This document shows, in pieces, positions 1 through 64,000 of a stretch of DNA of 64,000 nucleotides. Every line of letters begins with the position of its first letter. The first letter of the stretch is position 1. The notes under the pieces were generated by a model. It was not told the DNA's origin. It saw nothing but the letters and a program-made list of their open reading frames with translations, and made no database searches. The stretch comes from Eledone cirrhosa (taxonomy: Eukaryota), in assembly GCA_964016885.1 (NCBI GenBank), contig OZ024757.1:24118001-24182000 (forward strand), in the 5' to 3' direction. The position numbers and the translations under genes were made by a program.

Positions 1-159
1 TTGGATTTGAACTTAGAGCCAAGAATAAACATCATATCAAACCTACCTCTTTATTTGTGTAATTCCCTATTTCAGAAATTCTTAATTACTTCATCAGCTG
101 ATGCTTACTTACTACAGGTTGCTAAGGTAGAAGATGTATATATTTTCCTATAGATATTG

Positions 160-897
160 TGATCTCCGTCTTGCACTCGATAGATTTGATGCCGAATGCT
201 GCACGCCTGGAATGACTGTCAGTGCCTCAAAAAAAAAATGAGGCATTCGTCCTTACAAGAAAGCCTGCGCAGTGCACTCTACATATGAATGGAGTTCCAC
301 TGAAGCGGGTAGAGAAGTTCAAGCTACTTGGGGCTGTTTTCAGGAGTAATGGAAGGCAGGCGGCAGAATTAAGCGCAAGAATTGCTGGAGTTAGTGTAGT
401 AATGCGCCAGCTTCAGCATTCAGTAATCAGAAAATCAGAAGAAGGAAAGTAGACGTAAAAGCCAAACACGCTATCTTCAATTCGATATCCATGCCAACCC
501 TTAGCTATGGTCACGAATCTTGGGTAATGACCGAAAGATTACGATCTCGAACACAAATAGTGGCCTCGGAGTAACGTTACTCGACAGAGTGCGTAGCTCA
601 AAGATCAGAGAGTCACTCCAGGTAGAGGTGCTACTCCTCCGAACTGAGAGATCACAGCTTTGTTATGACAGACTTGTGGTTAGAATGTCTCGGGAAAGAA
701 TCGTTGAGCAGATTTTTAATGAGCAAAACCAGGAGACCCAGGGGTAGATCCCAAGCAAGATTGATGGATAACATTCATGAGCTTGGCTGGTCTCGCTTGG
801 GGATCCAGCCGGACCAGATGGGGATGGTTGCTTCTGACAAGGCCCACTGGAAGGAGTGTTTGATGACTCTACCTCCACGAAGAAGAAGAAGTACAGT
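160..897 (+). mobile_element. RTE-clade LINE, degenerate 3' fragment
   Basis: RT C-terminal motifs (VEKFKLLG, YGHESW, LLDRVRSSKIRESL); homologous to 62463-63080, 5385-5738 and 56235-56600. Confidence 0.8.
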
Positions 898-2147
898 ACA
901 GTTTTGATGGGCTAGTATTAATTGGTTATAGAACTAACACAGCGTGTTTCAGAATAAAAGCTTATATGACTTCCTATACAACACAATGGCATACATACAG
1001 GCTTACTGTGGTCATTTGAAGCTGTGATATAATGACATCCTATTAAACATAATCAGTGAAATCTGTGAAGACGCCAGGCCTAGTGGTTAGGGTGTAGGTT
1101 TCATGATCATAAAGCTATTGTTTCGATCACTGTTTTTGAGCCAGCCATTTCATATCATGTTCCTTTTCATGAGATGAGGGCTCCCTATCTTTACAACACC
1201 CCTGAAACATCGTAGGACGACAACTACACCTACATATGTGTGTATCTCTAACAAGATAGAACTGAGTCCCCGTGCATTAAAACACCTCTGAAACATCCTA
1301 TATTATGCCAGTTAAACCTGCTTACTCAGCTCTAACAACAACAATATGATAGACCTGGATTCCCTATCATTAAACTACCCAATAAACCTCCTATAATATG
1401 CCTCTTTGTAGGAGGCCAGCCAATTCTACATAGGTGCGAGTTGTAACATGTATGATAGAATTGGGGTTCCTCTCATTAAAACGCCCACATCGGTGTAAGC
1501 TGTAAATTTCATTTTGTTTTTCAAACAGCGGAAGCATTTGGTGTTCTTGAACTTCTTCACTTTATGCCAGCGACCTACCCAGGGTGATTTCGACAGTGAT
1601 GACACCGCAAATGTTAGGCCATTGCCATTTCTAAATTTACTCTGCATATATGTTTTGTTTTATTCTTTTTCTAAAACTGAAAGCTATGTACTCGATTTCT
1701 CTGGTGACTATTATTTTCAATGTCAGGTTATGTGCTCTCTGTTCATAAATAGAGACTTCTGCTGAAAGATCTGTGGTTTTCACATACATGGACATACCAT
1801 ATCCAACGTGACGCACAGTAATATTGACTAGGAAGATAGCTTCAAATGTGGCTGAAGCTCATTCAATATTTTTTCCAATTCTTGACTTAACAATCACACA
1901 TTTCTTCCATTTACTAACCAAATAATGAATTACCATCAATGTAGACATTATATAGTCGGTCGTTTAACTTGCATCAAATAGCAGATAAATGTTGCTGAAA
2001 CCAGACAGCTACGACTACCTCACAAAAGACGAAATGATTACGGCTGAAAGACCTTTGATCATAGCTTCTGTCAGTTACAGCTACGTTAGTTGACTTTCTT
2101 CTTTCATTTTCCATTTTGTTTCATTTAAATATTATTATTTGTTAAGA

Positions 2148-2582
2148 TCGGTTGATTGGCAGTATCGGTAGGGCTCCGTACAACATGCTTAGTGTCATAC
2201 ACTTACATCCCTTTACGTTCTGATTTCGAATCCCGCCGAGGTTAGCTTTGCCTTTCATCCTTAAGGGGTTGATAAAATAATATACCAGTAATGTACTGGA
2301 GTTGTTGATGTAATCAATTTTCCCCTCACCCCTTGTATCTAAATCAGGAACTATTGTTAATAGGGCGGTGGATTGACAGTATTGGTAGAGAGTCGTTAGT
2401 TTGACAGCATAAAATTACGTCCCTTTACATTCTGAGTTCAAATCCCGCCCAGGTTAGTTTTGCCTTTCATCCTTACGGGGTCGATAAATTAAAATACCGG
2501 TAATGTACTGAGGTTGATGTAATCGATTTGCCCCTCACCTCAAAATTGTTGGCCTTGTGTCTGAATCAGAAACAATTATTTG
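2148..2582 (+). mobile_element. Two adjacent tRNA-derived SINEs
   Basis: A-box-like TGGCAGTATCGGTAG, B-box GAGTTCAAATCC, shared body ctttgcctttcatcct...gtcgataaaataa..taccagt repeated throughout the window. Confidence 0.8.
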
Positions 2583-3043
2583 TTAAGTTATATTCCTAAC
2601 ACAGGCTTACGAATTGAGAACGTTAGTTATATTAGTGGATTATTTTTAAAAGATGGTAACCTGTTCTCAGTTTCACTACAGCAATTAGAGAAAGCTAGGA
2701 GAAAAACCACCTTTCGGGTGGTTTTCTGCTAGCATGTATAGTGTGTATATTGATATTATACACAGGTATATATACATGTAGATATGATACATCAAATAAA
2801 ATCGTAATTGACAATATACACAGAAATTGAATGAAGAGTGTGTTACACTGTCTTATGTAATCAGTAACGTAATCCATGATACATTAAAAAAAGACGATAT
2901 TATATATAAACAGCATTAGGAAAAAATTAGTATGTTTATTTAGGCGATCGCCAACCGGAAGTGTTGACATTTCAGAAATAAACAAAACATATTTAATCAA
3001 CAGCCACGAAATTTAGTAGATAAATTATGTAATATTCATTCAT

Positions 3044-3853
3044 TATTTATTCAAGGGCGGGATTGGCAGTATCGGTAGAGGGTCAGACACCATGCTTTCC
3101 AGCATAGTTACGTCCCTTTACGATCTGAGTTCAAATCCCGCCGAGGTTGACTTTGCCTTTCATCCTTACGGGGTCGATAAAATAAAGTACCAGTAATGCA
3201 CTGGGATAATTGCTGGCCTTGTGCCTAAAGTAGAAACAATTATTTATTCAAGGGCGGTGGATTGGCAGTATTGGTAGAGGGTCGGACGCCATGCTTTGAC
3301 GTATAGAGTTACGGCCCTTGCCATTCCGAGTTCAAATCCTGCCAAGGTTAACTTTGCCTTTCATCCTTACGGGGTCGATAAAATAAAGTACCAGTAATGC
3401 ACTGGGTAATTGCTGGCCTTGTGCCAAAAGTAGAAACAATTATTTATTCAAGGGCGGTGGATTGGCAGTATTGGTAGAGGGTCGGACGCCATGCTTTGAC
3501 GTATAGAGTTACGGCCCTTGCCATTCCGAGTTCAAATCCTGCCAAGGTTAACTTTGCCTTTCATCCTTACGGGGTCGATAAAATAAAGTACCAGTAATGC
3601 ACTGGGATAATTGCTGGCCTTGTGCCAAAAGTAGAAACAATTATTTATTCAAGGGCGGTGGATTGGCAGTATTGGTAGAGGGTCGGACGCCATGCTTTGA
3701 CGTATAGAGTTACGGCCCTTGCCATTCCGAGTTCAAATCCTGCCAAGGTTAACTTTGCCTTTCATCCTTACGGGGTCGATAAAATAAAGTACCAGTAATG
3801 CACTGGGTAATTGCTGGCCTTGTGTCTAACGTAGAAACAATTATTTATTCAAA
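3044..3853 (+). repeat. Tandem array of four ~200-bp SINE copies
   Basis: Units start at 3044, 3241, 3441 and 3642, each separated by TATTTATTCAA; copies 2-4 near-identical. Confidence 0.92.
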
Positions 3854-6800
3854 GTAATCCAACTTATTTTACTAATGGGATAAAAAATTATAAACCGTAT
3901 GCAGTCCCGCGCTCCTCCTTTTATTATAGTTTAGATTTACTGTTTGCTAGCGTTTATAGTCTGTTATTGACGGCGACGAATTGAGAGAATCGTTACAACG
4001 TCGGATAGAATGGTTTGTAATGTTCAAATTCCGATGACGTCAACATTGCGTTCCACCCTCAGCGGGTCGGTAAAAAAAAGTACCAGTCTAATACTGATGG
4101 TAATTCTCTCTTTCTCCCCCCCCCCCCAATCTCTCTCTCAGGAAGAAATCTGCACTATTCAGACCTGGAGAAGAGATGATGGTCTCCGCAAGGCTTAAAA
4201 ATGCCCTGTGAAATGAAATGCCCAGGGGTTACGCGGGACGAGCAGAAATAATATGCTGGTCTGGTATTTAACTGGTCACAGGCCCAAGCTTTGCAGCCGC
4301 TCGTGATGAGATGGAGAGAATGAAAGCCAAATACTAGGACTGGACTGCTCGCTCTCCCTCCGTGCCCATCACATTCGAGGCTTCTGTACACCTCCTTGGT
4401 CCCTTAACTACTGTTTTCCTGCAAAATATTGGGTGGAGCGCACCCCATACCCGAGTAAGGAGCCTTGTGTACTGGAGTTAACTGGATGATTTCCTCGGGA
4501 ATAGTTTCGCCATTTTGTCCGAGTGGAACAGCTGAGATTTCCGGTGTAGAGTTTGCCGCTGTCCACTTGTTTCCCCTTAATTTCGCTATTCCTTTTTTCT
4601 TTCTTTTTCTTTTTTTATTACAAACATTATATAACCAAATTGACATTTGTTAAATAAATAAATGTTTGTTGTTAACTAAATTATCATGGCTGATAGAACG
4701 TGGGATTGAAAATCTTGCAGAGTTCGTTCTTGGTTTTCTGTGGTCTGAAGTTAAATCCTCTGAGGTGAGATTTTCTTTTATTTATCGCCTTCGATGTCAA
4801 TAAAAACAGTACCAACCCAGTGTGATAGAGTTCATATTCGGTTGAGATAAGCTTTGGCGTTCATTCTTCCACGTATCGATAATCGGCAATTTTTTGAGAG
4901 CGTCGGACGGGACGCCCTGTGTTAAATATTCCTGCTCTTTGCGTTCTGAATTCAAATTCTGTTCGGGTGCTGGTGGTCAGGGTTATTCACCGGACCATGG
5001 GTACACCTACTCCAACTGATACTTGGCCAGTGAGGAAAGGTAGACCTAAAACCAGCATTGTTGCTCAACTTTCATCAGACAATGGATCAAAATCGACCCG
5101 ATAGAAAATTATTGAGCCAAACTTATTTAAAACAAATACAAAACTTCTAGGGCATTTTAAACCTGGAGGTCTCCACCCTTTCTCAACATCTTAAAATAGT
5201 CAGTTTCTTACAGAAATGGTGACAGAAAGAGTGATAGGGAGGAGGTAAAAAGAAGATAGAGAGGAAGACCCTAGCAGTGAACTCGAGAGGCAGAAAGAAT
5301 ACTACAAAAGATTCTACCTGACCTAATTCACCGCCTCCATTAGATAAGGATTGTGTGATTATAATTACATATCCGAGTAATATCTTGGGTAATGACCGAA
5401 GGAATACGATCGTTAATACAACCAGCAGAAATGGGGTTCCTCCGAATGGTCCTGAAAATAATATTACTTGATAGAGGGCGAAACTCGGAGATCAGGGAGT
5501 TGTTCCAGGTAGAGCCACTACTTCTCCTATATGAGAGATCACAGCTCCGATACTACGGGCCTGTGGTTAGAATGTCTAAGGGAATAATTGCTGGGCAGAT
5601 TTTACAGGCAAAACCATACAACAGGAAACACAGGAGTAGACCATGAGCTCTGTTAATCTCACTTGGGAATTCAGTCAGATCAGTTGGAGACGGTTGCTTT
5701 TGACAGGACCCGCTGGAAGGTGCGTCTAGGGACTTTGCGAGGTCAACTTTGCATTTCATCCTTTCGAGGTCGATTAAAAAAGTACCAGTCTAGTACTGGA
5801 GTTGACTATCTTTTCAACTTCCACTCTCTCACTATCCCCCCCTCTCTCTCTCTCTTTCCTTCGCTGGAAAAAATCAGTTGTGTTTAGCCTTGGGGATGGG
5901 ATGGGCGCCGCCAAGTTTTAAATACCAAAGAAACGCCGTGTGACACTACAGCTTTTTCAGGAATCACGGATCCATGCATACATCATATATATTGTGCTAC
6001 TGAATTCAACAAACCACCCGAACAAAAGAAATAGAGCGAAGAATATTTGGAAGAAAATTCTTGTGAATATATTTGCAGTGATAGAAAATAGATTGGCACT
6101 GGTTTTGAATAATATTCTAAAACCTCTAAACACAGTTTAATTCCTTCCTTTATATCATACTTGCAGATAGACAAATCATAAGCCATGATAACAACCAAAG
6201 TAATCTAATTTAATAACGAAATTACTTTCAATTAACTTGTTCTGAAAATTCAAACTAGAGTGACCCACAACTACGTTACACCATGAAAATATCAATATTT
6301 AAAATTTACAAACTACCATTGTGCATATCAGACTTAAATGCAGCATTTGTAATGATATTGAAATAACTTTTATCTAGAAAGAAGTTACTAATTCTAATGG
6401 ATTCCTATAATATGCCTATCTGATATGTATATTCCCTTTCAAAGAGATGGTTATCCACAAGAACAAACTCCATGACTTTTACTGGCTCTTTCAGTACATC
6501 TCTCTCGTCATTCTGTCAGTTGAGACCATGAGACAGCAACAATAAAATAGATACAATTCATAATGTAAAGGAGACATTCGCTTATATTGATAGTAAGAAT
6601 GGACCCAGTTCGACAATGTAGACCAAGAAAATATCTTGTACTTTGTAGAACTTTCAGGAATGTTGACACCCTAGGACGTTAAGAACTAGATGCTTAACGT
6701 TTAAAGGTAGAATGTGGAAAGAGAGAACCAAACGTAAGTCAGGGTGATTTTATAAGAGAAAGAAAGGGACGAAACTCAGTTTAGGTCTTTGTGAACGACG

Positions 6801-6875
6801 ATTATGATGTGTAGAAGGCTTAATAGATAGAATAAAGAAGCTGAAAATCAAATGTAAACAACATATTTCACTTAC

Positions 6876-7321
6876 TGTTCACGCAGATCTTCAACTTCTT
6901 CTTCAAGCCCTTCATTGCGGGAGTTTGCTTCTGCAAGTTGCTTATCCTTCTCTTCTAGCAGCCTTTTCAAATCATCCAGCTGCTCATCATACGCTCTCTT
7001 AATTATCTCAACGTTAAATTCAACCTTGGATTTACTTAAGAGTTCTTTAAGATGTCTGTTCTCAGCCTCCAAGTAACGTGTTTTTTCAAGGTGATTGGCA
7101 AGCTTACAATTCAAACCTTGCATTTCATGCTTTTCTCTGTCATTGCAAGATTTTATATTGGCAACACTTTGCTGGGACGATGTGGCCGCCACCCCAGCTT
7201 GTAAACTCAATGGTGCGCTTACCATGGAATAAGAATTTGCCCCTATTGATTTCCTGCTATTTGCTGGACGAACAGACAACCTGCTTGACATTCTCCGTCG
7301 TTGACTCATGCCTGTAGACAT
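6876..7321 (-). CDS. IF paralog copy A, exon 1 (no further exons seen in window)
   Basis: Same length (446 nt) and donor as copy B exon 1; codons 42-148 encode the same residues; head diverged (MSTGMSQRRRMSSRLSVRPANSRKSIGANSYSMVSAPLSLQ). Confidence 0.9.
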
Positions 7322-7496
7322 TTTCGTAGTTGTTCTTTAAGCACTTGACGTCAAATAAAATACCAGAATGGGATGAAGTACGGTTCACTTTCTTGGAAAT
7401 GAACTGAACACTGGAGAAAAATTACCAGAGAAAGATCTTACACCTGAACAAGTTTCCCGACACTGCTAAGTGGCCAATAAGAAGGCGTTACCTTCC

Positions 7497-7505
7497 TTAT
7501 ATATA
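7497..7505 (-). promoter_or_regulatory. TATA box of IF copy A
   Basis: Identical sequence and spacing to 59029-59037. Confidence 0.65.
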
Positions 7506-8930
7506 CCAACGAAGGGTTGTAGTGAGAGGTCCAGAAAGTGAGATGGAATGATTGAGACATAGAGTGAGTGAAAGAGTCTAGAGCGGTGGAGAGAGAGAGA
7601 GTGAGAGAGAGATCAAGTATCAGAAAAAGTAAGAGTAACGTGGGAGTGGGGTATGTATTTTATACAATATAACAACAAAAATTATTCCATTCATTTTCCT
7701 CTTAAAAAGAACAAGAAAAAAAGAGACACCATTTAAAGAAAGTGGCACATCATGCTTCAGTGAACATTACGAATGAGCTCAGTATATTGTTAAGACAGCA
7801 CCCACCTACGTTCACATGTTGCTAGCTAAGGATGCCGACATGCAGATCATATTTGTTGCTTAGATTCGCCTACAAACAATTCAAAGTTTCCTTTTGTAAA
7901 AATATATATTTATTTATCTATTCATTCGTCACACCATAATTTCTCGTCGTTAAATAATCTTTTGTCAAGACAGTTTAACTTGACAAACAACGTCGCCTGG
8001 CCGTATTTTATTATAGTTACGTCTCTCAATGGTTTGAGTTCAAATCCCTCCAAGGCTCAATATTATCGTTCGTTGTTCCGTCCATGAAGAAATAATTGTT
8101 TCTACTTTTAGCACGAGGCCAGCAATTATCCCAGTGTATTACTGGTACTTTATTTTATCGACCCGTCCATGAAGAAATAATGAAATACAGCCACCAGTCG
8201 GAGTTTTCACACCATCACTGTCACTCTCTATGTGAGGTTATCTGCGTGGAGTATCTTCTGTTGAAAATATGGTAGCCAGGAAGGCGTGTTAAAGAAAACT
8301 TCCTCATAAAACTACCCTGCTTCATCCGATTGCATTATCATCATCAACATCATCATCATCATCATCATCATCAACATCATTATCATCATCATCATCACCG
8401 CCGACTCCACTAGGGGTCACGGGACTATACCATACCATTACATTCCGAACGTATAATATTCCGAACGTAAAGTTCTGAACTTAAATCCTGTGAAGGTTAA
8501 CGTAGCTTCGGGGTCAATAAAATTAGTACCATTCGGGGAAATCGGACAGCAGCCCGGTTAAGGAAGGGGTTTCACGAAGTGGGGTGACTGTTGCAGCGGG
8601 TCTCGATGGCCATTGTCCGCGGGGCGCAGTCGAAACACTGCTCTGTCTTAGGTGTAGAGTCTGTCACCCTCTCCCCCTCTCCATTTCTTTTGTCACCGAA
8701 TAATCCTTGCTCTTCCCCATTTTCCTCTCGTTTATAGCATTTATAGTCCTTTCCAGTACTACTTTCCATTTCTATATATTTGACTTAATATTAAATTCTT
8801 TATCATTTTTATGTAATTTTATCCTAGAGATATATTTGAGTATGTTGAAATAAAATGTTTGTACCACGAAAAAAAAGAAAGAAAAATAAGACATTCATTG
8901 GTTGAATTGTAAATCAAAAGTTGAATATGA

Positions 8931-9287
8931 TTCCCTACTGTTCCTTAGAACCCTACTGTTCCCTAGAACCCTAGTGTTCCTTAGGACCCTAGTGTTTCCT
9001 AGAACCCTACTGTTCCCTAGACCCCTAGTGTTCCCTAGACCTCTAGTGTTCCCTAGAACCCTACTGTTCCCCAGAACCCTAGTGTTCCTTAGAACCCTAC
9101 TGTTCCCTAAACCCCTACTGTTCCCTAGAACCCTAGTGTTCCTTAGAACCCTACTGTTCCCTAGAACCCTACTCTTCCCTAGAACCCTACTCTTCCCTAG
9201 AACACTAGTGTTCCCTAGAACCCCACTGTTCCCTAGAACCCTACTGTTCCCTAGAACACTCGTGTTCCGTAGAACCCTACTGTTCCG
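8931..9287. repeat. 18-bp minisatellite, ~20 units (TTCCCTAGAACCCTACTG)
   Basis: Directly visible; produces the RTLLFP/VLGNSR pseudo-ORFs. Confidence 0.95.
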
Positions 9288-13321: not shown

Positions 13322-14450
13322 AAAATGTATGACCCCGACAGCAGAGCTCAACCCGTTTAGACGGCTATTTCTGGACTAAATTAGAATTTTTAGCGGGGTA
13401 AATAAATATCCAATCTTTTCAAGGGGTAATTCTTTATATGGGAAGATTGTTGTTGTCAAGAGGATTAGTCAAAATTTCTTGTAAACACAATTAAGTCTAT
13501 CCTGGCAGTGGGTGGGAGCTGGGTGTGGTTGAACTTGCCTGTAGAACAATGAGGGAGTGGGTGGAGCCGGTCAAGCGTTGAAAGTGAATTCTATATACCA
13601 AATTCTAAGGATTGTTTATGAAACTAGGCTAGAGGAAACAGGCGAAAAAGGATTCTGGAGAAAATAGAGAAGGGACGTTTTAGAATAGGTAAATCAATTG
13701 AGATTAGAAGATAATAAATAAATAAGGAAAAAATATATAAAAATATAAAATTGGATAGTAAGAAGTGATAAAAAATCTCTAGAGTCTAAAACAGCTGCTA
13801 TATTTAGTTGGTATTTCGTTTTCGGCCAATGCTATACAATAGGTTAATAAGTTGAGAATAGAAGATACTAAATAAATAAAAAATTTATTAAATTATAGAA
13901 TTGGGTAGTAAAAAGTAATACAAAATCTCTGGGGTCTAAAATAGCTGCTATAATTAGTTGGTATTGCGTTTTCGGCCAATGCTATCTATAATTTACTGGG
14001 GTGGGGGTACTGAGGCTACAAAGGCCCGATGGGCTGCCTTGGGGTAGGCGAAAGGAGGAAAAGGAAGAGGATAGGGAGTGGAAGGAAGTGATAGGAAGAG
14101 ATAAAGGGAAGAAGAAAATAAAAATGAAAAGAAAAGAAGTATATCTACCTATGTTAGCTGGGGTTTCCCCTAATTTGGTCGGCAAGTAGGGAAAAGGAGG
14201 ATGTTGCAGCCATTATCTACCCACCCGAGTCATTAGGGGGTTTAAGGGTGAGGTAAGTCCTACGCAATCGGTGTTTGCATGCAGTTACAAGTTCGTCTTT
14301 TTTGTTTAGGAGTTGGTCCTTCGTAAACAGCATTTGTAATGTTTCCTCTGAAAATAAGTTACACGGACAGCGTCCTCCCGTGTAGGAGTTAGCCCTGGAC
14401 AGTAAGCTCCAAGTAAGATTGTATGTTATGTTATTATCTTGGAGGTTCAG
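13318..14450 (-). mobile_element. Inverted 3' end (pseudo-LTR) of the adjacent Penelope-like element
   Basis: Encodes the GIY-YIG C-terminus ([17 protein letters not shown]...CNLFSEE); 14415-14450 is the reverse complement of ~16325-16357; degenerate hammerhead at ~13331-13428. Confidence 0.8.
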
Positions 14451-16357
14451 TTCCACCGAGAAAACTTTACCTTCGGATGCTCACGCAAAAAATCGACCTG
14501 TTTGCGAAAATACTAAGATGGAGAACTTTTTTCTACAAGAGATACCGCGTCAACCAGGACTTCGATACCAAGGAGAGATTCGGATTCAATACCTACAAAT
14601 CTCCCCCACCGAACCCTATGCTCTCACCCTTCAAGAACGACTTTTTCCACCTGGTCAAGGGTATAAAATTCAAACCCAGACACTACCGATTCCTACAACA
14701 ACTCCGTATCAAAATAACGGCGTATGAAAGCACCAATGACATCCTGGTGCATTCGGACAAAACTGGAAACCTCTATTTTGCCAACCCTAACAGATACCAC
14801 ACACTGCTCAGGAGCAGCCTGAACTCCATCTACAAAAATGCTAACCATTCAATTATCGAGGACATAAATCTAGATGGACAAAAACTTACCTCCAGCCTCG
14901 GGGTCGCCGACCGTACTGAACCCCTCGACCCACAGACTCCCTACTTCACACTGAAGGACCACAAATCCGACTTCGACCGCAAACCATCCATCAGGCTTAT
15001 AAACCCGAGGAAGTCGGACATACGGAGAATCAGTAAAAAGATCCTAGACCGCGTTATACCAAAAGTTAAGCGAAACGCAAGACTTAGCCTATGGGTCACC
15101 CAGGAAGTAATCTAATGGTTCAGGAATATTGAGGACAAACGGGACACCAAATTCATCCAGTTTGACATAGAGAGTTACTATGCATCTATTACCTTACCGC
15201 TCCTTACGGCCTCTTTGGACTTTGCCAAAACACTCATACCCATCACCGACCAGGAAAGAAATATCATTCTCCACGCCAGGAAGACAGTCCTACTTTTCGA
15301 CAACTCCAAGTGGATAAAGAGAACTCCTGACCCCCCCCCCCTCGACGTCAGTATGGGCGCGACCGATACGGCCGAGGTGACCAATCTTATAGGATCATTC
15401 CTACTATATAAACTCACCGAAATGTTTCCTGCATTCGGCGGTGGATTGTACCGAGACGATGGGCTCCTTACCCTCAAAGGGTACAACCCCAGTAGTACAG
15501 ACCAGGTCCGTAAACAACTAATCAACTTCTTCCGGGACTGGGGATTTAAAATCACCCTACAAACGTCCCTAACCCGAGTCAATTTCCTGGACGTTACCCT
15601 CAACCTCGAAAATGATCTGTACTACCCATACAGGGAACCAAACGACAACCTGCACTACATCCACCGCCGCTCTAACCATCCTAGAAACATCAATAACCTG
15701 GTTAAAAACATCTCCCTCCGCATATCTCGTTTGTCCGCTCATGAGCAGATATTCGATGAACATGCGCCTCATTACAACCAGGCCCTCAAGCGAAGCGGCT
15801 TCCGGGAGGAAATATCCTTTTAGCCAGCTTCCCTTAGCGGAACCAGCAGGCGACGCCGCCGCTCACGCCACGTAACCTGGTTCAACCCTCCTCACAATGC
15901 CGAGGTGGCAACACCTATCGGGAAAATCTTCTTTAGGCTCCTCGAAAAACACTTCCCACCACGACACCGCTACCACAACATAATCAACTAAAATACTATC
16001 AAACTCACCTACAGCAACACACCCAACTTCGCACAAAACATCCCCTCCTCAAACAACAAAATACTCAAACCCTATGGAAGAAACAACCTAGACATTAGTG
16101 GACAACCGACCAGGAGGTGTAAATGCCCTGATAGATCTACGTGCCCCCTCAACAACATATACCGAGAACGTAACGTGATTTACCAATGCAACATGAGGAT
16201 GGACACCTCCAACAAAGCTTATATAGGATTAACCGCTTGTGAGCTTTAAGACCCGGCTCTACCAACACCGACATACGTTCCGAAACCCACCTGGCGACAT
16301 TCCACTACACTTTCGGGTCCCATCTGGAACTTCCAAGATAATAACATAACATACAAT
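14451..16357 (+). mobile_element. Penelope-like retroelement (RT + GIY-YIG), disrupted by stops/frameshifts
   Basis: DKTGNLY, KDHK..F..KPSIRLINP, FIQFDIE, MGA.D.AEV, GLYRDDGL, FLDVTLNL, SNHP, then WFNPP, CKC....CPL and YIGLT. Confidence 0.9.
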
Positions 16358-18590
16358 CTCTCCTGCACACCACAACTTATCCCTCTTATACTCAGTTTCT
16401 TTCTCAACTCGTCTATGCTTGGTCGTTCACGCACATTGACATTGCAAATCCAACGGAGCATACTTGCTTCATTTCTCTCCAGCCGTCGCATATCTTCTGC
16501 AGTGCCCATGTCTCACTACCATGCAGCATCGCGCATCTCCCACAGCCATCATATAACCGTCCTTTCGTACGCAGGGAGAAACCCTTCTTTGACAACAGAG
16601 GAAGCAGCTCCCTAAACTTCTTCCAATCCGTCCTTATTCTAGATACTATGGCCTCAGACCCCCCTCCCTGCTAATCTGATCACCTAGGAACCGGAAGCTA
16701 TCAACCACTTCTATAGAACCCACCTGCATTGGAAAAATGTGTCTATCACTGCGATCACTACTGCCAAATTTCCCTGTGCATCTACTGCATACGTAGTTTT
16801 CCCTACGTGTTAGTTTGCCTGCTATCCCACTACATCTCTTGTGTACCCAAGAACTGCATTGCGTACATTTTATGGAATTTATGCCAGTTCCTTTCCTACA
16901 TATCAAACATGGCCATTTCCCTGATGGAATCAGAGTATTGTCCTCTCTTCTACTTATCAACACTTTTGTTTTAGCTATGTTCACTCTCAGGCCTCTTGAT
17001 TCCAACTGCTGTTTCCATAGCCAGAATTTATTCCCTAGCTCCTCTAGTGATTCTGCTATAAGAACCAGATCATCAGCATAGAGAAGTTCCCATGGACAGC
17101 CAGTCTTAAACTCCTCTGTTATGGCTTGGAGGACTATAATGAACAAGAGGGGGCTGAGGACCGAACCCTGATGTACACCTACTTGAATCTGGAATTCCTC
17201 GCTAAACTCCATTCCTATTCTCACTTTACTGACAGCAACCCTGTACAAAGCTTGCACTATCCTCACAAACCATTCCTCTACACCTAGTTTCCTTAGAAAC
17301 CACCAGATCACAGATCGGGATACCCTATCAAAGGCCTTCTCTAGGTCAACAAAAGCTAAGTATAGTGGCTTATTCTTCTCTAAGAACCTCTCTTGTAGTG
17401 GCCTCACTGAGAAGAGGGCATCTGTTGTACTTTTCCGAGGCACAAAACCAAACTGCATCTCATCTAATTTGACCCTTTCTCTAATCAGTTGCGCTAATAT
17501 TCTCTCTGCCACTTTCATAACCTGATCCATCAGCTTTATGCCCCTATAATTGCTCCTCTCTAGAGCATCCCCTTTACCTTTGTAGAAATTTATGAGAATA
17601 CTGCTGCACCAGTCTTTGGGTATGACACCACCATATATAGCTTGATTAATGATGCGTGAAACTAGTTTAGTGCCTACTTCTCCTGATGCCTTCAGCATCT
17701 CAGCAACTATCACCGACGGTCCAGCAGCCTTACCATTCTTCATTTCCTTAATTGCCTCTTGTACGTCAATCTCAATAGCTGGTCCCTCTGTCGGGTCCAC
17801 TGATGGTAATTTCTCACTGTCCCATTCGTTCTCCAAATTCATCAGTCTCTCATAATGACATTTCCAGGCCTCCTTTTTTTTGATCATTCGTGACACTAAG
17901 TACACCGGTATCATTCCGGACACATTTATTTCCAACAACATCCTGATTTGTAATGACACACTGCCTTGCAATGTGAAATACCGCACGTCTTTGATCTTCC
18001 CGTCACAGAACATTGGCAAACCTCCCCCTCTCAGCCTCCCTGCGTGCTAAGTACACCTGACGTCTAGCTTCTCTCTTAGCGGCTGTGTATCCTTTTCTAC
18101 TCCCACCATTTTTCCAAGCCTTCCATGCCAGTCTTTTGTCTCTAATGGCCCTATCTACCGTGCTGTTCCACCACCAGGTCACTCTTTGTCTGGTTGGAGC
18201 TCTGCCCCAACCACAAATTTCTTCAGTAGTCTGCAGTAAGTTGTCATGTAAGAAATTCCAGTTATCATCTATGTCATACAACTCTAAATGGTCTTCTTTT
18301 TTGCCATACACATTTGAAGGGCTTTCCTAAATTTATATTTTAATGAAAGGTCTTTTAGTTTCCAGACCTTTCTTTTCCACACCTTCCTGTATGACTCATT
18401 CCATCTCTTGCTTACTGAGATATCACTAACGACTAACCTATGCTGTGGGGTACATTTTTCTCCGGGGTATGCCTTAGTATTTGACACCATCTGTCTGTCT
18501 CGCAGGAAGTTAATCTGGGTTATGTGCTTCGCCTGATTTGTAGGTTATTAGGTGGTTGGTAGGCTTCTGGAAGTTAGTGTTGCAAATAGT
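16358..18590 (-). mobile_element. RTE-clade LINE (EN remnant, RT, PHD-like finger) abutting the truncated PLE 3' end
   Basis: 457-aa ORF: NYRGIKLM, FVDLEKAFD, GVHQGSVLSPLLF, LLYADD, then CLIC...CTQC..WVHKRC...VCSRC; upstream QHRLVVSD endonuclease motif. Confidence 0.92.
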
Positions 18591-21879: not shown

Positions 21880-24821
21880 ACTCAGATGGACAAACACATA
21901 TTTACTCCAATGGACAAACACAATAACAGCAACAACAACAACAGTCAGAAAACCAGGAGCAACCACTGCTGAATTCAAGCATAATAGCTGAATTACTGAA
22001 TAACAGTATCCCTCAGCCACTCACTCAGCCATCATTATCGCCATCGCCATCACCACCGTCACCATCTTCTGCCACATCAATTGCTAGTAATGGACCACTG
22101 CTCTCTCTCCCACCACAGTTGTCATCATCATCATCACCAATAATGCTTTCTTCCCCACATCACCACCGTCACCATCTTCTGCCACATCAATTGCTAGTAA
22201 TGGACCACTGCTCTCTCTCCCACCACAGTTGTCATCATCATCATCACCAATAATGCTTTCTTCCCCCACATCACCACCGTCACCATCTTCTGCCACATCA
22301 ATTGCTAGTAATGGACCACTGCTCTCTCTCCCACCACAGTTGTCATCATCATCATCACCAATAATGCTTTCTTCCCCACATCACCACCGTCACCATCTTC
22401 TGCCACATCAATTGCTAGTAATGGACCACTGCTCTCTCTCCCACCAGAGCCATGCCATCATCATCATCATCACCAATAATGCTTTCTTCCCCCACATCAC
22501 CACCGTTACCATCTTCTGCCACATCAATTGCTAGTAATGGACCACTGCTCTCTCTCCCACCACAGTTGTCATCATCATCATCACCAATAATGCTTTCTTC
22601 CCACATCACCACCGTCACCATCTTCTGCCACATCAATTGCTAGTAATGGACCACTGCTCTCTCTCCCACCATAGTTGTCATCATCATCATCACCAATAAT
22701 GCTTTCTTCCCCCACATCACCACCAGAGCCATGCCATAGTCAAAAGAACTCTAAAAAAAAAAAAAATCTATGGAGCTGTATGCACCGCCACTACACATAC
22801 TAGAAACCCCATAATATGCCCCTGCTCAATACATGAGAGGCTATGCACACGTAGCGACTGTATGTTTACCCATTTACGGGGTACTAGGCGCACTGACACT
22901 GCCAGCCAACACCAAAGCACGCTGCCCGCACGTATAGGTCGCAGTCCCCAAATCTGCCAACATTCCCAACGTGAGAGGCTATGTCTGCTGACTGACTGTC
23001 CCTTCACTCATCTTCCTGGGACACAACGCACGAACAAAAAAGGGGCTCCATGTCAACCCACAAACCACAATAAAGCCACACCCTGCTGCGGTAATGCTGC
23101 TCCAGTCTCCTCACAAAGACATGATTGCAACAACAAAAACACCAAAAGTAATGCTGCTCCAGTCTTTTCACAAAGACACGATTACAACAACAAAAATAAC
23201 GATGCTCCAGTCTTTTCACAAAGTCACAATTACAACAAATACAACAACAACAACAACAACAAAAGAGGGAACTGCAACCCTATCCAATGTTGTAACCACA
23301 AATCCAATCAAAAACTGCTCCCTGAACAAAAAAAATCTTTCTTTTTTAGCCATGAACCTGGCAAAAGAGATAGAGAAAAACATTTTAGTCATCACCCAAC
23401 ACCATCCTTGCTGTCACTAACACACAATCACAAAACAAGCCCCCTGCAACAGTCAAAACCAGCCACCACACTAGCCTCCACATTCTTACTCAATATAAAA
23501 GGTATCAGCCCATCCATCAATGCACAGAAATGGAGGATTGGGTTGGTAACCATCCATTTCACATCCCCTTCTTCATTCTTACTGAGACCCACCTTGGAGG
23601 CCGAAGTCAGAGTGAGAAATTTCACAACCATCCGTGCGGATCGTATTGGCAGAAGGAAGGGTGGAACTGCCATTTTCCTGCATGATTCCTTTACAGCAGA
23701 TGGTAACACAACATTCTCTAATGGATACAGTGAATCAGTCACTGTGCACAATAAAGCCAATGATCTGACATAAGTTGGGCTCTATAGGCCACCACAAACA
23801 CCCATAATCTGCTTCAAAGAATGCCTCAACAGTATTAAATGCTTTATTAAACAGTGCCATTCTAGCAACATACTTTTGATGGGAGACTTTAATCTACCCT
23901 GTGTCGATTGGTCTAGAAACAATTGGAACCAGGCACCCCAACCTCAACCAATGACAAAGAAGCAGTCGAGTCACTTCTTGACTTCATGAATGAGTTTTTC
24001 TTGTCCCAACTTGTCCTTGCACCAACAAGGCATAAGAAGAACATTATGGATCTAGTGTTTAGCAACCACACTAACACACTACAAAATATTACAGTGGAAA
24101 AAACCCTTCTCTCAGACTATGACATGGTTCTTTGTAACCTGAGATTCCACCAGCCGAAAGCTAACCATAGGGACCTATTTGAAGCCCACCTATTTGATAA
24201 CATGGATCTCTACAATGCCAACTGGGATGCAATTATGAACGAACTATCACATGTTGACTGGTCTTTTACACACGCACACATTTCCACCAACATCAAAACA
24301 TATTGGCAGATCTTTGTAGACACTGTCACAAATATATGTACAAAACACACCCCACCAAAACCTGTGAACAAAACCAAGTGCAGTATCAGTATCCCCCAAA
24401 ACAGAAAAACAATTATCAGAAAAATAAAAAGAACAAAGAAAAAATTTAACACACTAAAATACTGCCAACAGCAACACACACATTCAATGGCTATTGCCCT
24501 GCTTGAGTCAAAAATATATAACCTCCAACAATGTATGAAGACCCTCATCAATAACCAGAGAACAGCTGAAGAGAGGTGGGCCATTGAGAAAATCAAACTC
24601 AACCACAAAGTGTTCTTTTCATTTGCTTAATAACACAAGGTCACTGTCTCCACTGTTGGCCCTCTAGTTGATGAAAATGGCACACTCCAAGATAATGCCA
24701 AAAGAATGGGCGAGATACTGCAGAAGCAATACTGCTCTGTTTTCAGCAATCCTGATATGGCCGATCTGGGCCGTATCAGTGATGTTAATCCCCAACACAC
24801 TATATCAGACATAACGTTTGG
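21880..24821 (+). mobile_element. CR1/L2-group LINE, 5' part (ORF1 with tandem repeats and CCCH-like fingers; APE endonuclease), 3'-truncated
   Basis: LLNIKGI, RADRIGRRKGGTAIF, LYRPP, MGDFNLP, MDLVFSN, SDY endonuclease motifs; two C-x7/8-C-x4-C-x3-H motifs near 22817-23010. Confidence 0.85.
22045..22735 (+). repeat. ~111-bp tandem repeat (~6 units) in LINE ORF1
   Basis: Encodes TSPPSPSSATSIASNGPLLSLPPQLSSSSSPIMLSSP repeats; 1-nt indels break the frame. Confidence 0.92.
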
Positions 24822-25260
24822 GTCGTTTATAGTCAATAGGTGTTTGTTAAATGTAGATTCCTCCGAATTACTGGCCATGTTGTTATTGTAGGTATATTAT
24901 CTTTATATCTATATATCTCTCTCTCTATATATATATCTCTCTCTCTATATATATATACTATATATGTATATATATATACTATATATGTATATATAATATA
25001 TATATACTATATATATGTATATATATATATATAATGTATATATATATATATACTATATATATGTATATATATATGTATATGTATATATATAATGTATATA
25101 TATATATATATATATGTATATGTATATATATAATGTATATGTATATATATAATGTATATATATATATATGTATATGTATATATATAATGTATATATATAT
25201 ATATGTATATGTATATATATAATGTATATGTATATATATAATGTATATATATATATATAT

Positions 25261-25655: not shown

Positions 25656-26259
25656 ATATATATATATATAATATATACATATATTATATATATATGTATA
25701 TATATATATATATATATATAATTATTTGCTCTACTGTTATATATTTGATATATACTTATCCTTATCGAGCCCTCTTTGGATCTTAATCTTCAAATTTATT
25801 ATTATTACTATATATATATATATATATATATAATCTTGCATCAATCTGAAACCTTTTCTCCGCCAGTACCAACAGTTTTGGACGAGATGTCAACATGAAT
25901 GGACCTGTTATTTTTATCTAAAACATTTTTTTCCAATTCCAACTTGCCCGTCCCCTCAATCTATCCTATTTCTCATTCTTGTTTATGATGAATGACTAGC
26001 GTCCGAAACGTTAAAACCCTCTTCCTGCTATATCAAACGTTCACCTAATCTATCCCTTCCATACACTGTACGATCGTGTTGTTATTTCTGTTTAGCTTTC
26101 ACACACACACACGCACACGCACACATGTGTATATATATATATATATTGTCTATTTAAAGAAAAAGATATTCTTTAAATACTTATGTATGTATTTCCAATA
26201 GAGAGAGTAGAAAGAAAGGAAAAAAGAGAGAGAAAACAACATAGTTATGTATTTATAAT

Positions 26260-26265
26260 TTTATT
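26260..26265 (-). terminator. Likely polyadenylation signal of IF copy B
   Basis: AATAAA on the minus strand ~640 nt after the stop; same site in the upstream paralog (63206-63211); paralog similarity drops sharply ~30 nt downstream. Confidence 0.65.
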
Positions 26266-57023: not shown

Positions 57024-58407
57024 AGGCGGTAAAATTCCCGAGATCCATGGACGAGTTCTCTCCAGCGGTCTCTGTCCCTCATTATCGCTGCCATGTCCTG
57101 CGTCTCCAACAGACCAGTGTCTGTCCTTAGGGCATCAACATACGTTAACCTTGATTACATAAGGCGTTAAAATGTTGGATAGAATGCGTTGTGGTATTTG
57201 TTTCGCCTCTCTACGCTCTGAGTTCAATTTCTCCATAGTCAACTTTGCATTTCATCCTTTCCAGGTCGATCAAAAAAGTACCAGACTAGTACTTGGGTTG
57301 GCTCTTCCTCTATAACTTTTTTTACTTCCTCTCTATTACACACTCTCTCACCATCGCTATCTCTCTCTCACTCTCTCTCTCTCACCATCTCTCTCTCGCT
57401 CTCTCTCTCTCTCTCGCTCACCATCTCTCTCTCTCTCTATGGAAGAAATCAGCTGTGTTCATACGTAGGAAACGCCGTGTGACACTACAGCTTTTTCAGG
57501 AATCCATGCATACATCATATATATTGTGCTACTGAATTCAACAAACCACCCGAACAAAAGAAATAGAGCGAAGAATATTTGGAAGAAAATTCTTGTGAAT
57601 ATATTTGCAGTGATAGAAAATAGATTGGCACTGGTTTTGAATAATATTCTAAAACCTCTAAACACAGTTTAATTCCTTCCTTTATATCATACTTGCAGAT
57701 AGACAAATCATAAGCCATGATAACAACCAAAGTAATCTAATTTAATAACGAAATTACTTTCAATTAACTTGTTCTGAAAATTCAAACTAGAGTGACCCAC
57801 AACTACGTTACACCATGAAAATATCAATATTTAAAATTTACAAACTACCATTGTGCATATCAGACTTAAATGCAGCATTTGTAATGATATTGAAATAACT
57901 TTTATCTAGAAAGAAGTTACTAATTCTAATGGATTCCTATAATATGCCTATCTGATATGTATATTCCCTTTCAAAGAGATGGTTATCCACAAGAACAAAC
58001 TCCATGACTTTTACTGGCTCTTTCAGTACATCTCTCTCGTCATTCTGTCAGTTGAGACCATGAGACAGCAACAATAAAATAGATACAATTCATAATGTAA
58101 AGGAGACATTCGCTTATATTGATAGTAAGAATGGACCCAGTTCGACAATGTAGACCAAGAAAATATCTTGTACTTTGTAGAACTTTCAGGAATGTTGACA
58201 CCCTAGGACGTTAAGAACTAGATGCTTAACGTTTAAAGGTAGAATGTGGAAAGAGAGAACCAAACGTAAGTCAGGGTGATTTTATAAGAGAAAGAAAGGG
58301 ACGAAACTCAGTTTAGGTCTTTGTGAACGACGATTATGATGTGTAGAAGGCTTAATAGATAGAATAAAGAAGCTGAAAATCAAATGTAAACAACATATTT
58401 CACTTAC

Positions 58408-58853
58408 TGTTCACGCAGATCTTCAACTTCTTCTTCAAGCCCTTCATTGCGGGAGTTTGCTTCTGCAAGTTGCTTATCCTTCTCTTCTAGCAGCCTTTTC
58501 AAATCATCCAGCTGCTCATCATACGCTCTCTTAATTATCTCAACGTTAAATTCAACCTTGGATTTACTTAAGAGTTCTTTAAGATGTCTGTTCTCAGCCT
58601 CCAAGTAACGTGTTTTTTCAAGGTGATTGGCAAGCTTACAATTCAAACCTTGCATTTCATGCTTTTCTCTGTCATTGCAAGATTTTATATTGGCAACACT
58701 TTGCTGGGACGATGTGGCCGCCACCCCAGCATGTAAACTCAATGGTGCGCTTCCCATGGAATAAGAATGTGCCCCTGTTGATCTCCTCGGATTTCCTAGA
58801 CGAACAGATGGTTGTCTCGATTTCCGTCGACTACTTATGTTTATAGAAGACAT
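58408..58853 (-). CDS. Cytoplasmic IF gene, copy B, exon 1 (head, coil 1A, start of coil 1B)
   Basis: ATG at 58853; Ser/Arg-rich head then REKHEMQGLNCKLANHLEKTRYLEAEN (IF coil 1A); donor CA|gtaagt at 58407; 446 nt, phase 2. Confidence 0.95.
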
Positions 58854-59028
58854 TTTCGTAGTTGTTCTTTAAGCACTTGACGTCAAATAAAATACCAGAA
58901 TGGGATGAAGTACGGTTCACTTTCTTGGAAATGAACTGAACACTGGAGAAAAATTACCAGAGAAAGATCTTACACCTGAACAAGTTTCCCGACACTGCTA
59001 AGTGGCCAATAAGAAGGCGTTACCTTCC

Positions 59029-59037
59029 TTATATATA
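59029..59037 (-). promoter_or_regulatory. TATA box of IF copy B
   Basis: TATATATAAGG ~180 nt upstream of the ATG in non-repetitive context; identical in copy A. Confidence 0.7.
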
Positions 59038-60399
59038 CCAACGAAGGGTTGTAGTGAGAGGTCCAGAAAGTGAGATGGAATGATTGAGTAAAAGAGTCTA
59101 GAGCGGTGGAGAGAGAGAGAGTGAGAGAGAGATCAAGTATCAGAAAAAGTAAGAGTAACGTGGGAGTGGGGTATGTATTTTATACAATATAACAACAAAA
59201 ATTATTCCATTCATTTTCCTCTTAAAAAGAAAAAAAGAGACACCATTTAAAGAAAGTGGCACATCATGCTTCAGTGAACATTACGAATGAGCTCAGTATA
59301 TTGTTAAGACAGCACCCACCTACGTTCACATGTTGCTAGCTAAGGATGCCGACATGCAGATCATATTTGTTGCTTAGATTCGCCTACAAACAATTCAAAG
59401 TTTCCTTTTGTAAAAATATATATTTATTTATCTATTCATTCGTCACACCATAATTTCTCGTCGTTAAATAATCTTTTGTCAAGACAGTTTAACTTGACAA
59501 ACAACGTCGCCTGGCCGTATTTTATTATAGTCACGTCTCTCAATGGTTTGAGTTCAAATCCCTCCAAGGCTCAATATTATCGTTCGTTGTTCCGACCATG
59601 AAGAAATAATTGTTTCTACTTTAGGTACGAGGCAAGCAATTATCCCAGTGCATTACTGGTACTTTATTTTATCGACCCCGTAAGGATGAAAGGCAAAGTT
59701 AACCTCGGCGGGATTTGAACTCAGATCGTAAAGGGGCGTAACTATGCTGGAAAGCATGGCGTCCGACCCTCTACCGATAATGAAATACAGCCACCAGTCG
59801 GAGTTTTCACACCATCGCTGTCACTCTCTATTTGAGGTTATCTGCGTGGAGTATCTTCTGTTGAAAATATGGAAGCCAGGAAGGCGTGTTAAAGAAAACT
59901 TCCTCATAAAACTATCCTGCTTCATCCGAATGAATATGCACCACCAACACAACCTCCGCCAGTGAAACCACTGTCCTCACCACCGCCGCCACAACCGACC
60001 TCCTCCTCCACATTCCTTACAAGCTGCTGGTCTTGTGTCACATGTAGAAACAATTATTACTTTTGCCAAAAGCGGTAAATTGGCTGGATTACTTGAGCAT
60101 CGGTATATATTCCACATTGCGGTGAATTAGCAGTCATTAGAACGTCGGATAGAATGCTTTGTGGTATTTGTTTCGGCTCTCTGCTCTCTTAGTTCAAATA
60201 CCGCCGAGGTCAACTTTGCCTTTCATCCATTCGATAAAAAAAAGTACCGGTTTACTACTGGGGTCTATTTTTCCTCTATTTTGTATTCGTAATTGAATTT
60301 TTCATTTTCGTGGGTCTGCGAAAGTACCAGATTGATGACTGGCGCGAATAAGACCGTCAAAACTGTAATATGGAAAGAGATACGAAAGAGAACCATACC

Positions 60400-63100: not shown

Positions 63101-63852
63101 AGATATGTATAGAAGATTTTCTTTAAATACACATCCGTGCATTTCCACTCGAGTGAGTACAAATAGAGGAAGAGAGAGAAAACAACATAGTTATGTATTT
63201 ATATTTTTATTGCCCTTTTTTTTATACAATTCAAAGAAAAAAACATTAGGAAACGTATTTCAATGTAATAAATGAACACATAATGCACTCTTAACTGCTA
63301 GAAAACTTAATCATATATCGAAAATATTGCTGCCTATGTTTCTGGATTTTCTACTTCATAGATTTGCTATACGTATATCTTTGTGTGATTATATATAGCA
63401 CACATACCAGTCTAACATGTTAAGGAGCAACATTTAGCAGAGAGCAGTCATGTTGTTGTCTTATCTCGATTCCTATATAAGCAGCCATTATGGACACCAT
63501 GGTTACAAGTTATATCAAGCGAAAGCGTTTTTTAATATTTTATAATGAATCGTGTAGCAATGGCCCAGAAAAACATATAGCACTGAAAACTGAATGCAAT
63601 CTTGTTCCTTATAATTCTTGCCTTAAATTTAAGAGAAATGCGTAACGTTTTTTTAAAAACATTTAAGTTAAATTTTTCAGAAGATTTCTTTAAAATTATG
63701 ATTTTACGGGAAGTGTAAGTATTACTAATGTTATTTTTATGAAGCAATTTTATTATCAAAAAAGCTACGTTCTGAAACTTGGTGTTAACTTCAACAAACC
63801 AATGGATACTTCTCAGTGGAGAAAGAGGGCACACAATTTCACAGGTCAATCT

Positions 63853-63885
63853 TTAGTTCAGTTTGATGTTAAGGACAGCGATTTC
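63853..63885 (-). CDS. IF paralog copy C, last exon coding part (EIAVLNIKLN*); 3'UTR to ~63180
   Basis: ttccag|GAA ATC GCT GTC CTT AAC ATC AAA CTG AAC TAA; 63177-64000 aligns with 26231-27060. Confidence 0.88.
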   Translation of the reverse strand, partial: EIAVLNIKLN

Positions 63886-64000
63886 CTGGAAAATGTATAT
63901 TAAGAATCGAATAAGAAATACTGAGATCGATTAAGGTATTTGTGTGACAATAAGGTTTTCCAGCTTGTATTAAACTATTAACAGTCATACAGCGTGATTC

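Follow-up and report, generated by a model that had tools for sequence, protein, structure and literature searches.

[quoted passage not shown] In these systems, a narrow peak of coding divergence with an excess of amino acid changes stands between flanks of low divergence, and the peaks were confirmed by a second species or by a known function (PMC3924837, PMC2588116). In the Tigriopus paralogs GOT1p1/GOT1p2, divergence islands likewise persist amid conversion and novel haplotypes arise from transfer between the paralogs, although that system is an enzyme pair with population data and not a filament array (PMC3728101). Among intermediate filament (IF) genes, the mammalian keratins K6A/B/C, K81/83/86/87 and K31/33A/33B/34 are tandem genes that evolve in concert; conversion was significant there for no more than 3 of 19 groups, and the text seen of that study describes no island restricted to the head (PMC5540548). 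An abrupt switch of the pattern at the start codon was reported for KRTAP1, with a polarity opposite to ours, the coding sequence being homogenised and the flanks diverged (10.1101/282418).

The window, i.e., the whole stretch of 64,000 nucleotides of Eledone cirrhosa DNA that we analysed, shows ongoing conversion and a narrow peak flanked on either side by sequence of low divergence. It has a tandem arrangement like the opsin and Drosophila pairs, and possibly an excess of amino acid changes like theirs. It differs from them in having three copies with nested islands, a segregating hybrid, and a disordered cytoskeletal head as the target. We consider the locus a clear new example of the known pattern, with more copies than were first seen; adaptive divergence of the heads is plausible and unproven.

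The genes are arranged head to tail in the order X, B, A, with the last exon of X, a complete gene B (11 exons, from 58853 to 26907) and exon 1 of A lying within the window (see the table). Both copies A and B are on the minus strand, positions 7321 (A) and 58853 (B) being the start ATGs of their first exons. No exon 2 of A was found within the remaining 4.2 kb of the window (1-4225), and A may therefore not be a whole gene; the A/B homology ends about 270 bp short of the position matching exon 2 of B. The possibility that A is an alternative first exon of gene B was ruled out by its position downstream of B on the coding strand. Between the last exons of X and B there are 3 base differences, which fall in 2 of 10 sense codons and alter the residue in each, while the adjoining 200 or so bases of the 3'UTR are identical. 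On a small scale, this is a second instance of divergent coding sequence next to non-coding sequence that has been homogenised.

Coordinates of the features of the array and of the divergence islands (all positions refer to the window)
Feature	Position	Strand	Basis and remarks
Gene B, exon 1 coding part (head, pre-coil, coil 1A, coil 1B start)	58408-58853	-	ORF and GT donor; Pfam Filament E 9.4e-10 from residue 63
Gene B, exons 2-11	26907-54807	-	AG/GT borders; exons 1-10 form a stop-free frame of 553 residues; last exon carries the stop
Gene B, exons 2-6	54807-54621, 40071-39976, 39356-39192, 38796-38677, 37566-37346	-	Rod ends in exon 6
Gene B, exons 7-11	37039-36960, 31425-31313, 29134-29024, 27817-27698, 26939-26907	-	Lamin tail domain in exons 8-11
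Gene A, exon 1 coding part	6876-7321	-	Frame and donor intact
Upstream paralog X, 3' end	63113-64000	-	Last exon 63885-63853 and 3'UTR; 94.8% identical to B 26163-27060
Duplicated block around A exon 1	4225-8349	.	Homologous to 55077-59949; divergence patchy, 0 to 16%
Head island of A, codons 3-41	7199-7315	-	A/B alignment; head seen in X3 record 21, depth 4.5
Head island of B, codons 3-41	58731-58847	-	A/B alignment; 58731-58777 also variable among B haplotypes
Start codon, codon 2, 5'UTR, TATA box (59035)	58848-59084	-	A = B; merged with C at read level
Zero-difference tract of B (rest of exon 1 and proximal intron 1)	57502-58730	-	A/B alignment; 960-bp contig
Longer island of C (codons 3-72), in coordinates of B	58639-58847	-	X1 record 3 and joint 58765-58848, depth about 5.4; C not assembled in the window

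Besides the filament genes, the window holds about four copies of a 200-bp tandem unit derived from an interspersed repeat (3042-3852) and an 18-bp minisatellite (8933-9286). Long ORFs at 14417-15823, 16646-18046, 22700-24891, 33611-36116 and 42488-43699 looked, by eye, like reverse transcriptase/endonuclease sequences of LINE and Penelope type, and some of these sit within the introns of gene B.

The Pfam Filament profile matched exon 6 of gene B with E 4.8e-13 (49.9 bits); the match to exon 1 scored 39 bits, as a fragment just below the 40-bit cut-off. The rod is long and of lamin type, with 345 residues from the coil 1A motif to the rod-end motif, compared to 347 in the O. sinensis protein P0013. 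The rod of vertebrate cytoplasmic IF proteins is shorter, at about 310 residues. The lamin tail domain (LTD) was detected with E 0.0034 on one exon 9 fragment, below the curated cut-off, and exons 8-10 align with the tails of the O. sinensis proteins P0001 and P0002, which carry PF00932. On these sequence features, the predicted product of gene B is a protostome cytoplasmic intermediate filament protein with a long rod and an LTD. Lamins are marked by an NLS, a CaaX or, in cephalopods, an aromatic C-terminus, and a CDK1 site in the head (PMC10125929). A nuclear lamin was rejected, as exons 6-10 hold no basic cluster after the rod and the C-terminus is neither aromatic nor CaaX; the absence of S/T-P sites from the first 45 residues of the head also counts against a lamin. 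The name "neurofilament" is the database source label of the relatives, and proteins under this label were reported from the skin mucus of O. vulgaris (PMC11431876).

Structure prediction gave a continuous helix from residue 45, while residues 1-40 were predicted to be disordered with a mean pLDDT of 44-50, so that the divergent head island would span the disordered segment. The heads of A and B are alike in composition, with 7 Lys/Arg, 12 Ser/Thr and no acidic residue among 45. A dibasic kinase motif at residue 12 is common to both; in B, a further two Arg-directed motifs follow at residues 16 and 26. Paralogs in the mammalian keratin clusters named above differ mainly in their end domains.

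When A and B were compared without gaps, 18 of the first 41 residues differed, as the earlier note had stated. Also as listed there, all eight unlike codons in the range 16-41 (10 bases) change the amino acid: P/L, A/G, S/P, K/R, I/T, N/H, V/G and Q/H. The count of eight in eight with none silent holds for codons 16-41; it leaves out codons 1-15, which contain three synonymous differences in the ungapped and one in the gapped comparison. In coordinates of A, the head had 19 substitutions in 117 bp and four gap events. On one side of it, no base differed in the rest of exon 1 downstream of codon 41 (codons 42-149; 0 of 323 bp) or in proximal intron 1 (0 of 912 bp); on the other side, codon 2, the 5'UTR, the TATA box and the sequence beyond were free of substitutions as well (0 of 237 bp). 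The contrast between the head (19/117) and the flanks (0/1472) was highly significant (Fisher p 7e-23), and recent duplication alone cannot explain it.

The proposed identity of the flanks stood for 1235 bp on one side and 237 bp on the other; the duplicated block as a whole is patchy, with diverged distal parts. Distal intron 1 differed at 12 of 1499 bp, and a non-coding island at 5739-5963, beside a microsatellite and an insertion, at 25 of 225 bp (11% divergence). Upstream of the identical 237-bp stretch we counted 1 difference in 465 bp, and then, far upstream, 13 in 159 and 11 in 173. A stretch of about 630 bp in intron 1 of B (56589-57220), missing from A, lies beside GA microsatellites between the tract with 0% and the tract with 0.8% divergence, and may bound conversion.

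Within one block, divergence thus moves in steps of 0, 0.2, 0.8, 6-8 and 16%, which fits tracts of different age. Since other duplicated parts differ by 5-8%, the copies are older than their identical tracts. In simulations of uniform neutral mutation and conversion, a lone island arose in 0 of 3600 runs. The earlier suggestion that the array is homogenised by gene conversion is, on the sequence evidence, well supported by the patchy divergence, by a third head, a hybrid allele and a third gene end, and by concerted evolution in Octopus.

The read evidence came from contigs of four out of seven public runs (X1-X4); X1-X3 are of one sample, possibly the assembly's own source, and the run contigs drop small variants. 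We found in these contigs the A head, the B head and a third head, C, which bore out the proposal of a filament family with a constant rod and variable heads. In X1, the depth was 18.2 over 57679-58638 (960 bp with a single letter throughout) and 18.9 over 58848-59088, compared to 6.0 at the tip of B, 5.4 for C and 12.4-12.6 at the flanks of A-type indels. These depths (about 6+6+6) fit three diploid loci; by the same arithmetic, A and B as alleles were rejected, and a collapse does not fit. The scenario by which the earlier note would have been refuted, with flanks collapsed or mis-polished, is disfavoured by the run contigs, in which three heads at depth 4.5-6 lie under flanks about three times as deep. 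That the flanks do not diverge at all is backed by the depth, yet falls short of proof because small variants are dropped from the run contigs. In X3, a variant with four differences at 57772-57816 (intron 1) occurred at one-copy depth, together with one difference at 58279, neither being present in contigs of X1 or X2; at least one copy or allele is incompletely homogenised at these sites.

Head C was present in X1, X2 and X3 at depths of 4.9-5.5, with 14 other letters in 58609-58765. Judging by the length of its contigs, the C head would be about 9 bases shorter, and C may be gene X. Compared with A/B over codons 42-81, all 10 changed codons of C alter the residue. The contigs of A, B and C all return to the common path at 58848, right after codon 2.

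We also observed a hybrid B head. In record 13 of X2, the B tip is continuous with A-type letters at 58769 and 58777, and the window's own B letters at these positions had a depth of 2.7 out of 24.8 in X1 and of about 8000 in X4. The hybrid contig and the minority status of the window's letters in X1 imply that B has at least two haplotypes over about 58731-58777, and B indeed splits into two half-depth haplotypes. The hybrid tract contains four differences in 47 bp (p 0.0014 at a background of 1%, 0.016 at 2%) and fits a segregating conversion tract. A protein from this haplotype would lose the kinase motif at residue 26. The window's letter at 58731 (codon 41, His) was in no contig of X1-X3, and in X4 it had about 4600 out of a summed depth of 68900; it may be a further B haplotype or come from a different individual.

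The summed contig depth in X4 was 18,000-99,000 across exon 1 (58358-58949) and 2-4 in the intron. Because depths in the tens of thousands are confined to exon 1 and the 5'UTR, X4 is likely RNA, and its depth suggests a very abundant transcript. Both B haplotypes and letters of the A head were seen in X4. Contig depth cannot rank the expression of A, B and C, and the lack of C letters in the X4 contigs carries no evidential weight.

Proteins of Octopus sinensis and O. bimaculoides that carry the label "70 kDa neurofilament" were the best relatives in the database; the one from O. sinensis is 64% identical to exon 1 of gene B. In a FastTree phylogeny, the window gene fell within an octopod clade including Argonauta members (support 1.0). 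The cluster of "70 kDa / 60 kDa neurofilament protein-like" sequences that we compared comprises O. sinensis P0001, P0002, P0004, P0006, P0008 and P0011, O. bimaculoides P0003 and P0005, and Argonauta hians P0007 and P0010. These proteins share the Filament and LTD architecture, the listed longest contig is the same for the paralogs of a species, and each species has several more distant paralogs. Unlike a close ortholog, they match the window gene at best with 45-71% identity per rod or tail exon. A search for relatives the size of exon 1 had no hit in 32 candidates; among the 150 matches listed by a search of representatives without a profile, no relative exceeded 62% identity.

Concerted evolution at the scale of exons was seen in the octopod cluster as well, in a comparison that uses database gene models, which may be chimeric. 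In exon 2, Octopus paralogs within a species were 98% and 95% identical, compared to 90% and 92% for orthologs. The heads, on the other hand, follow orthology, with 42% and 32% identity between paralogs and 51% and 71% between orthologs; the rod part of exon 1 reached 83% and 90% between orthologs. Informative sites between O. sinensis and O. bimaculoides, counted as shared by orthologs versus shared within species, were 21:0 in exon 1 and 0:3 in exon 2 (Fisher p 0.0005). The whole of exon 1 is distinct between the Octopus paralogs and exon 2 is homogenised, whereas in the window the rod part of exon 1 is homogenised too and only the head is distinct.

Some O. sinensis models looked like patchworks. 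P0004 and P0006 match completely over exons 1-2 and 9-10 and only at 36-67% over exons 3-8; P0001 and P0002 have the N-terminal half in common and unlike tails. Such models could reflect alternative splicing of exon blocks across tandem units, exon-scale conversion, or chimeric annotation. In the open-access literature, we did not find the octopod filament cluster or its conversion described; the one mention encountered there was the skin mucus proteome (PMC11431876).

The earlier note had placed the head tip under diversifying selection. Our tests, made with our own pairwise codon model under three frequency schemes, are suggestive only: A/B alone was not significant against omega=1, and significance was approached only when C was pooled in. 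For A/B, codons 16-41 gave p 0.09-0.13, and the whole head an omega of 1.5-2.1 with gaps (p 0.23-0.50) and of 0.4-0.6 without. For A/C, codons 42-81 gave an omega of 3.7-3.8 (p 0.16-0.18). Pooling A/B and C brought omega to about 5 (p 0.035-0.06) with codons 16-41, and to 2.0-2.5 (gapped, p 0.07-0.18) or 0.7-0.9 (ungapped) with the whole head. The estimate thus hinges on the alignment of codons 3-15.

Counted over A, B and C, 20 of 21 single-base codon differences were nonsynonymous (one-sided binomial p 0.012-0.031), and so were six of six multi-base ones; these pooled counts omit two of the 14 other letters of C, for which there were no C-specific rows, and the tip sequence of C. At four of its ten changed sites C keeps the family-consensus residue, and A/B keep it at another four, so both lineages have changed. 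Many of the A/C changes are conservative. Taken together, the codon signal leans towards selection without establishing it.

How the head escaped homogenisation can be explained in several ways. We lean, a little beyond even chances, towards the following account. In an octopod tandem IF array of at least three copies, gene conversion is most likely the cause of the identity, and selection against overwriting of the heads likely preserves their differences. Conversion tracts would land repeatedly on both sides of the head, and those replacing head residues would mostly be purged by selection. Amino acid differences would persist owing to this purging, while silent and non-coding differences would be erased. 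The proteins are predicted to co-assemble through the identical starts of coil 1A and coil 1B, with the basic, Ser-rich, disordered heads tuning assembly or phosphoregulation.

A serious rival, which we regard as possible and still rather unlikely, combines conversion with a neutral barrier: a weakly constrained, indel-prone, disordered head diverged early, and its mismatches now stop the tracts, with no selection needed. The predicted disorder of the head speaks for it, as does the fast evolution of heads between orthologs too, which weak constraint predicts. The head of C. elegans IFA-2 is reported to be dispensable (PMC4351089). The non-coding island at 5739-5963, in the same block, shows that islands can arise without selection on coding sequence; omega=1 was not rejected for A/B; and the hybrid B haplotype has lost four of the amino acid differences of the head, which therefore are not strongly protected. 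On the other hand, the 5'UTR and the intron, which are unconstrained, were homogenised in each of the three copies, on the 5'UTR side as far as codon 2, and silent changes were 1 in 21 of the single-base codon differences when 23-27% were expected. Simulations with a neutral barrier produced a lone island in 0 of 480 and 0 of 28,007 runs; these runs are weak evidence as they were poorly tuned, and the second set does not test this rival because divergence ran away to 25-55%.

It is improbable, in our view, that short conversion tracts imported pieces of head from older, distant members of the cluster into young, identical duplicates. Octopod genomes do have several more distant paralogs per species, the O. 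sinensis proteins resemble patchworks by exon type, and C keeps consensus residues at 4 of 10 sites. Still, the family state is kept by A/B at another four, so that both lineages changed, and no donor was seen; moreover, all three heads differ, and imports would thus need at least two events with the same 5' edge.

A recent duplication of the whole gene followed by very fast adaptive change of the head, with no conversion, is very unlikely and largely contradicted. It would account for the near-identical flanks and the predominance of nonsynonymous changes, but other parts of the same duplicated blocks differ by 0.8%, 5% and 6-8%, a hybrid haplotype exists, and, given the 0.8% rate seen in the adjacent intron, 1235 bp would be free of differences with p 2.5e-5. 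Equally remote is an assembly artefact, in which A and B would be two alleles arranged as a tandem, or older paralogs with flanks overwritten by polishing: the possible identity of the X1-X3 sample with the assembly's source, the dropping of small variants, the extra X3 differences and the window's letter at 58731 would be in keeping with it, whereas the three heads under flanks of threefold depth, the two half-depth haplotypes of B itself and the third gene end are against it, and flanks diverged at the percent level would have broken up the 960-bp contig or reduced its depth, the effect that the C island and the A-type indels had.

A stronger form of the account with selection is doubtful at present, though worth stating. 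The array would diversify heads, with conversion keeping the promoter and the start of the rod, positive selection driving the heads apart, and partial conversion making hybrids, so that co-assembling subunits would differ only in their heads. Such diversification may extend to first exons or exon blocks spliced across neighbouring genes, if the O. sinensis patchwork isoforms are real.

In this cluster, paralogs are probably mixed up in gene models and in expression values from short reads. The locus draws attention to a cluster of octopod filament genes evolving in concert, the evolutionary pattern itself being already known from other gene families. If selection holds, the array would be a natural head-swap experiment, with promoter and rod start fixed and the head as the sole variable. 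In vertebrate filaments, the heads control assembly, are essential for it, and are phosphorylated (PMC11121635), in contrast with the dispensable head of IFA-2 (PMC4351089). The octopod genes would then offer a direct test of what the heads of invertebrate filaments do.
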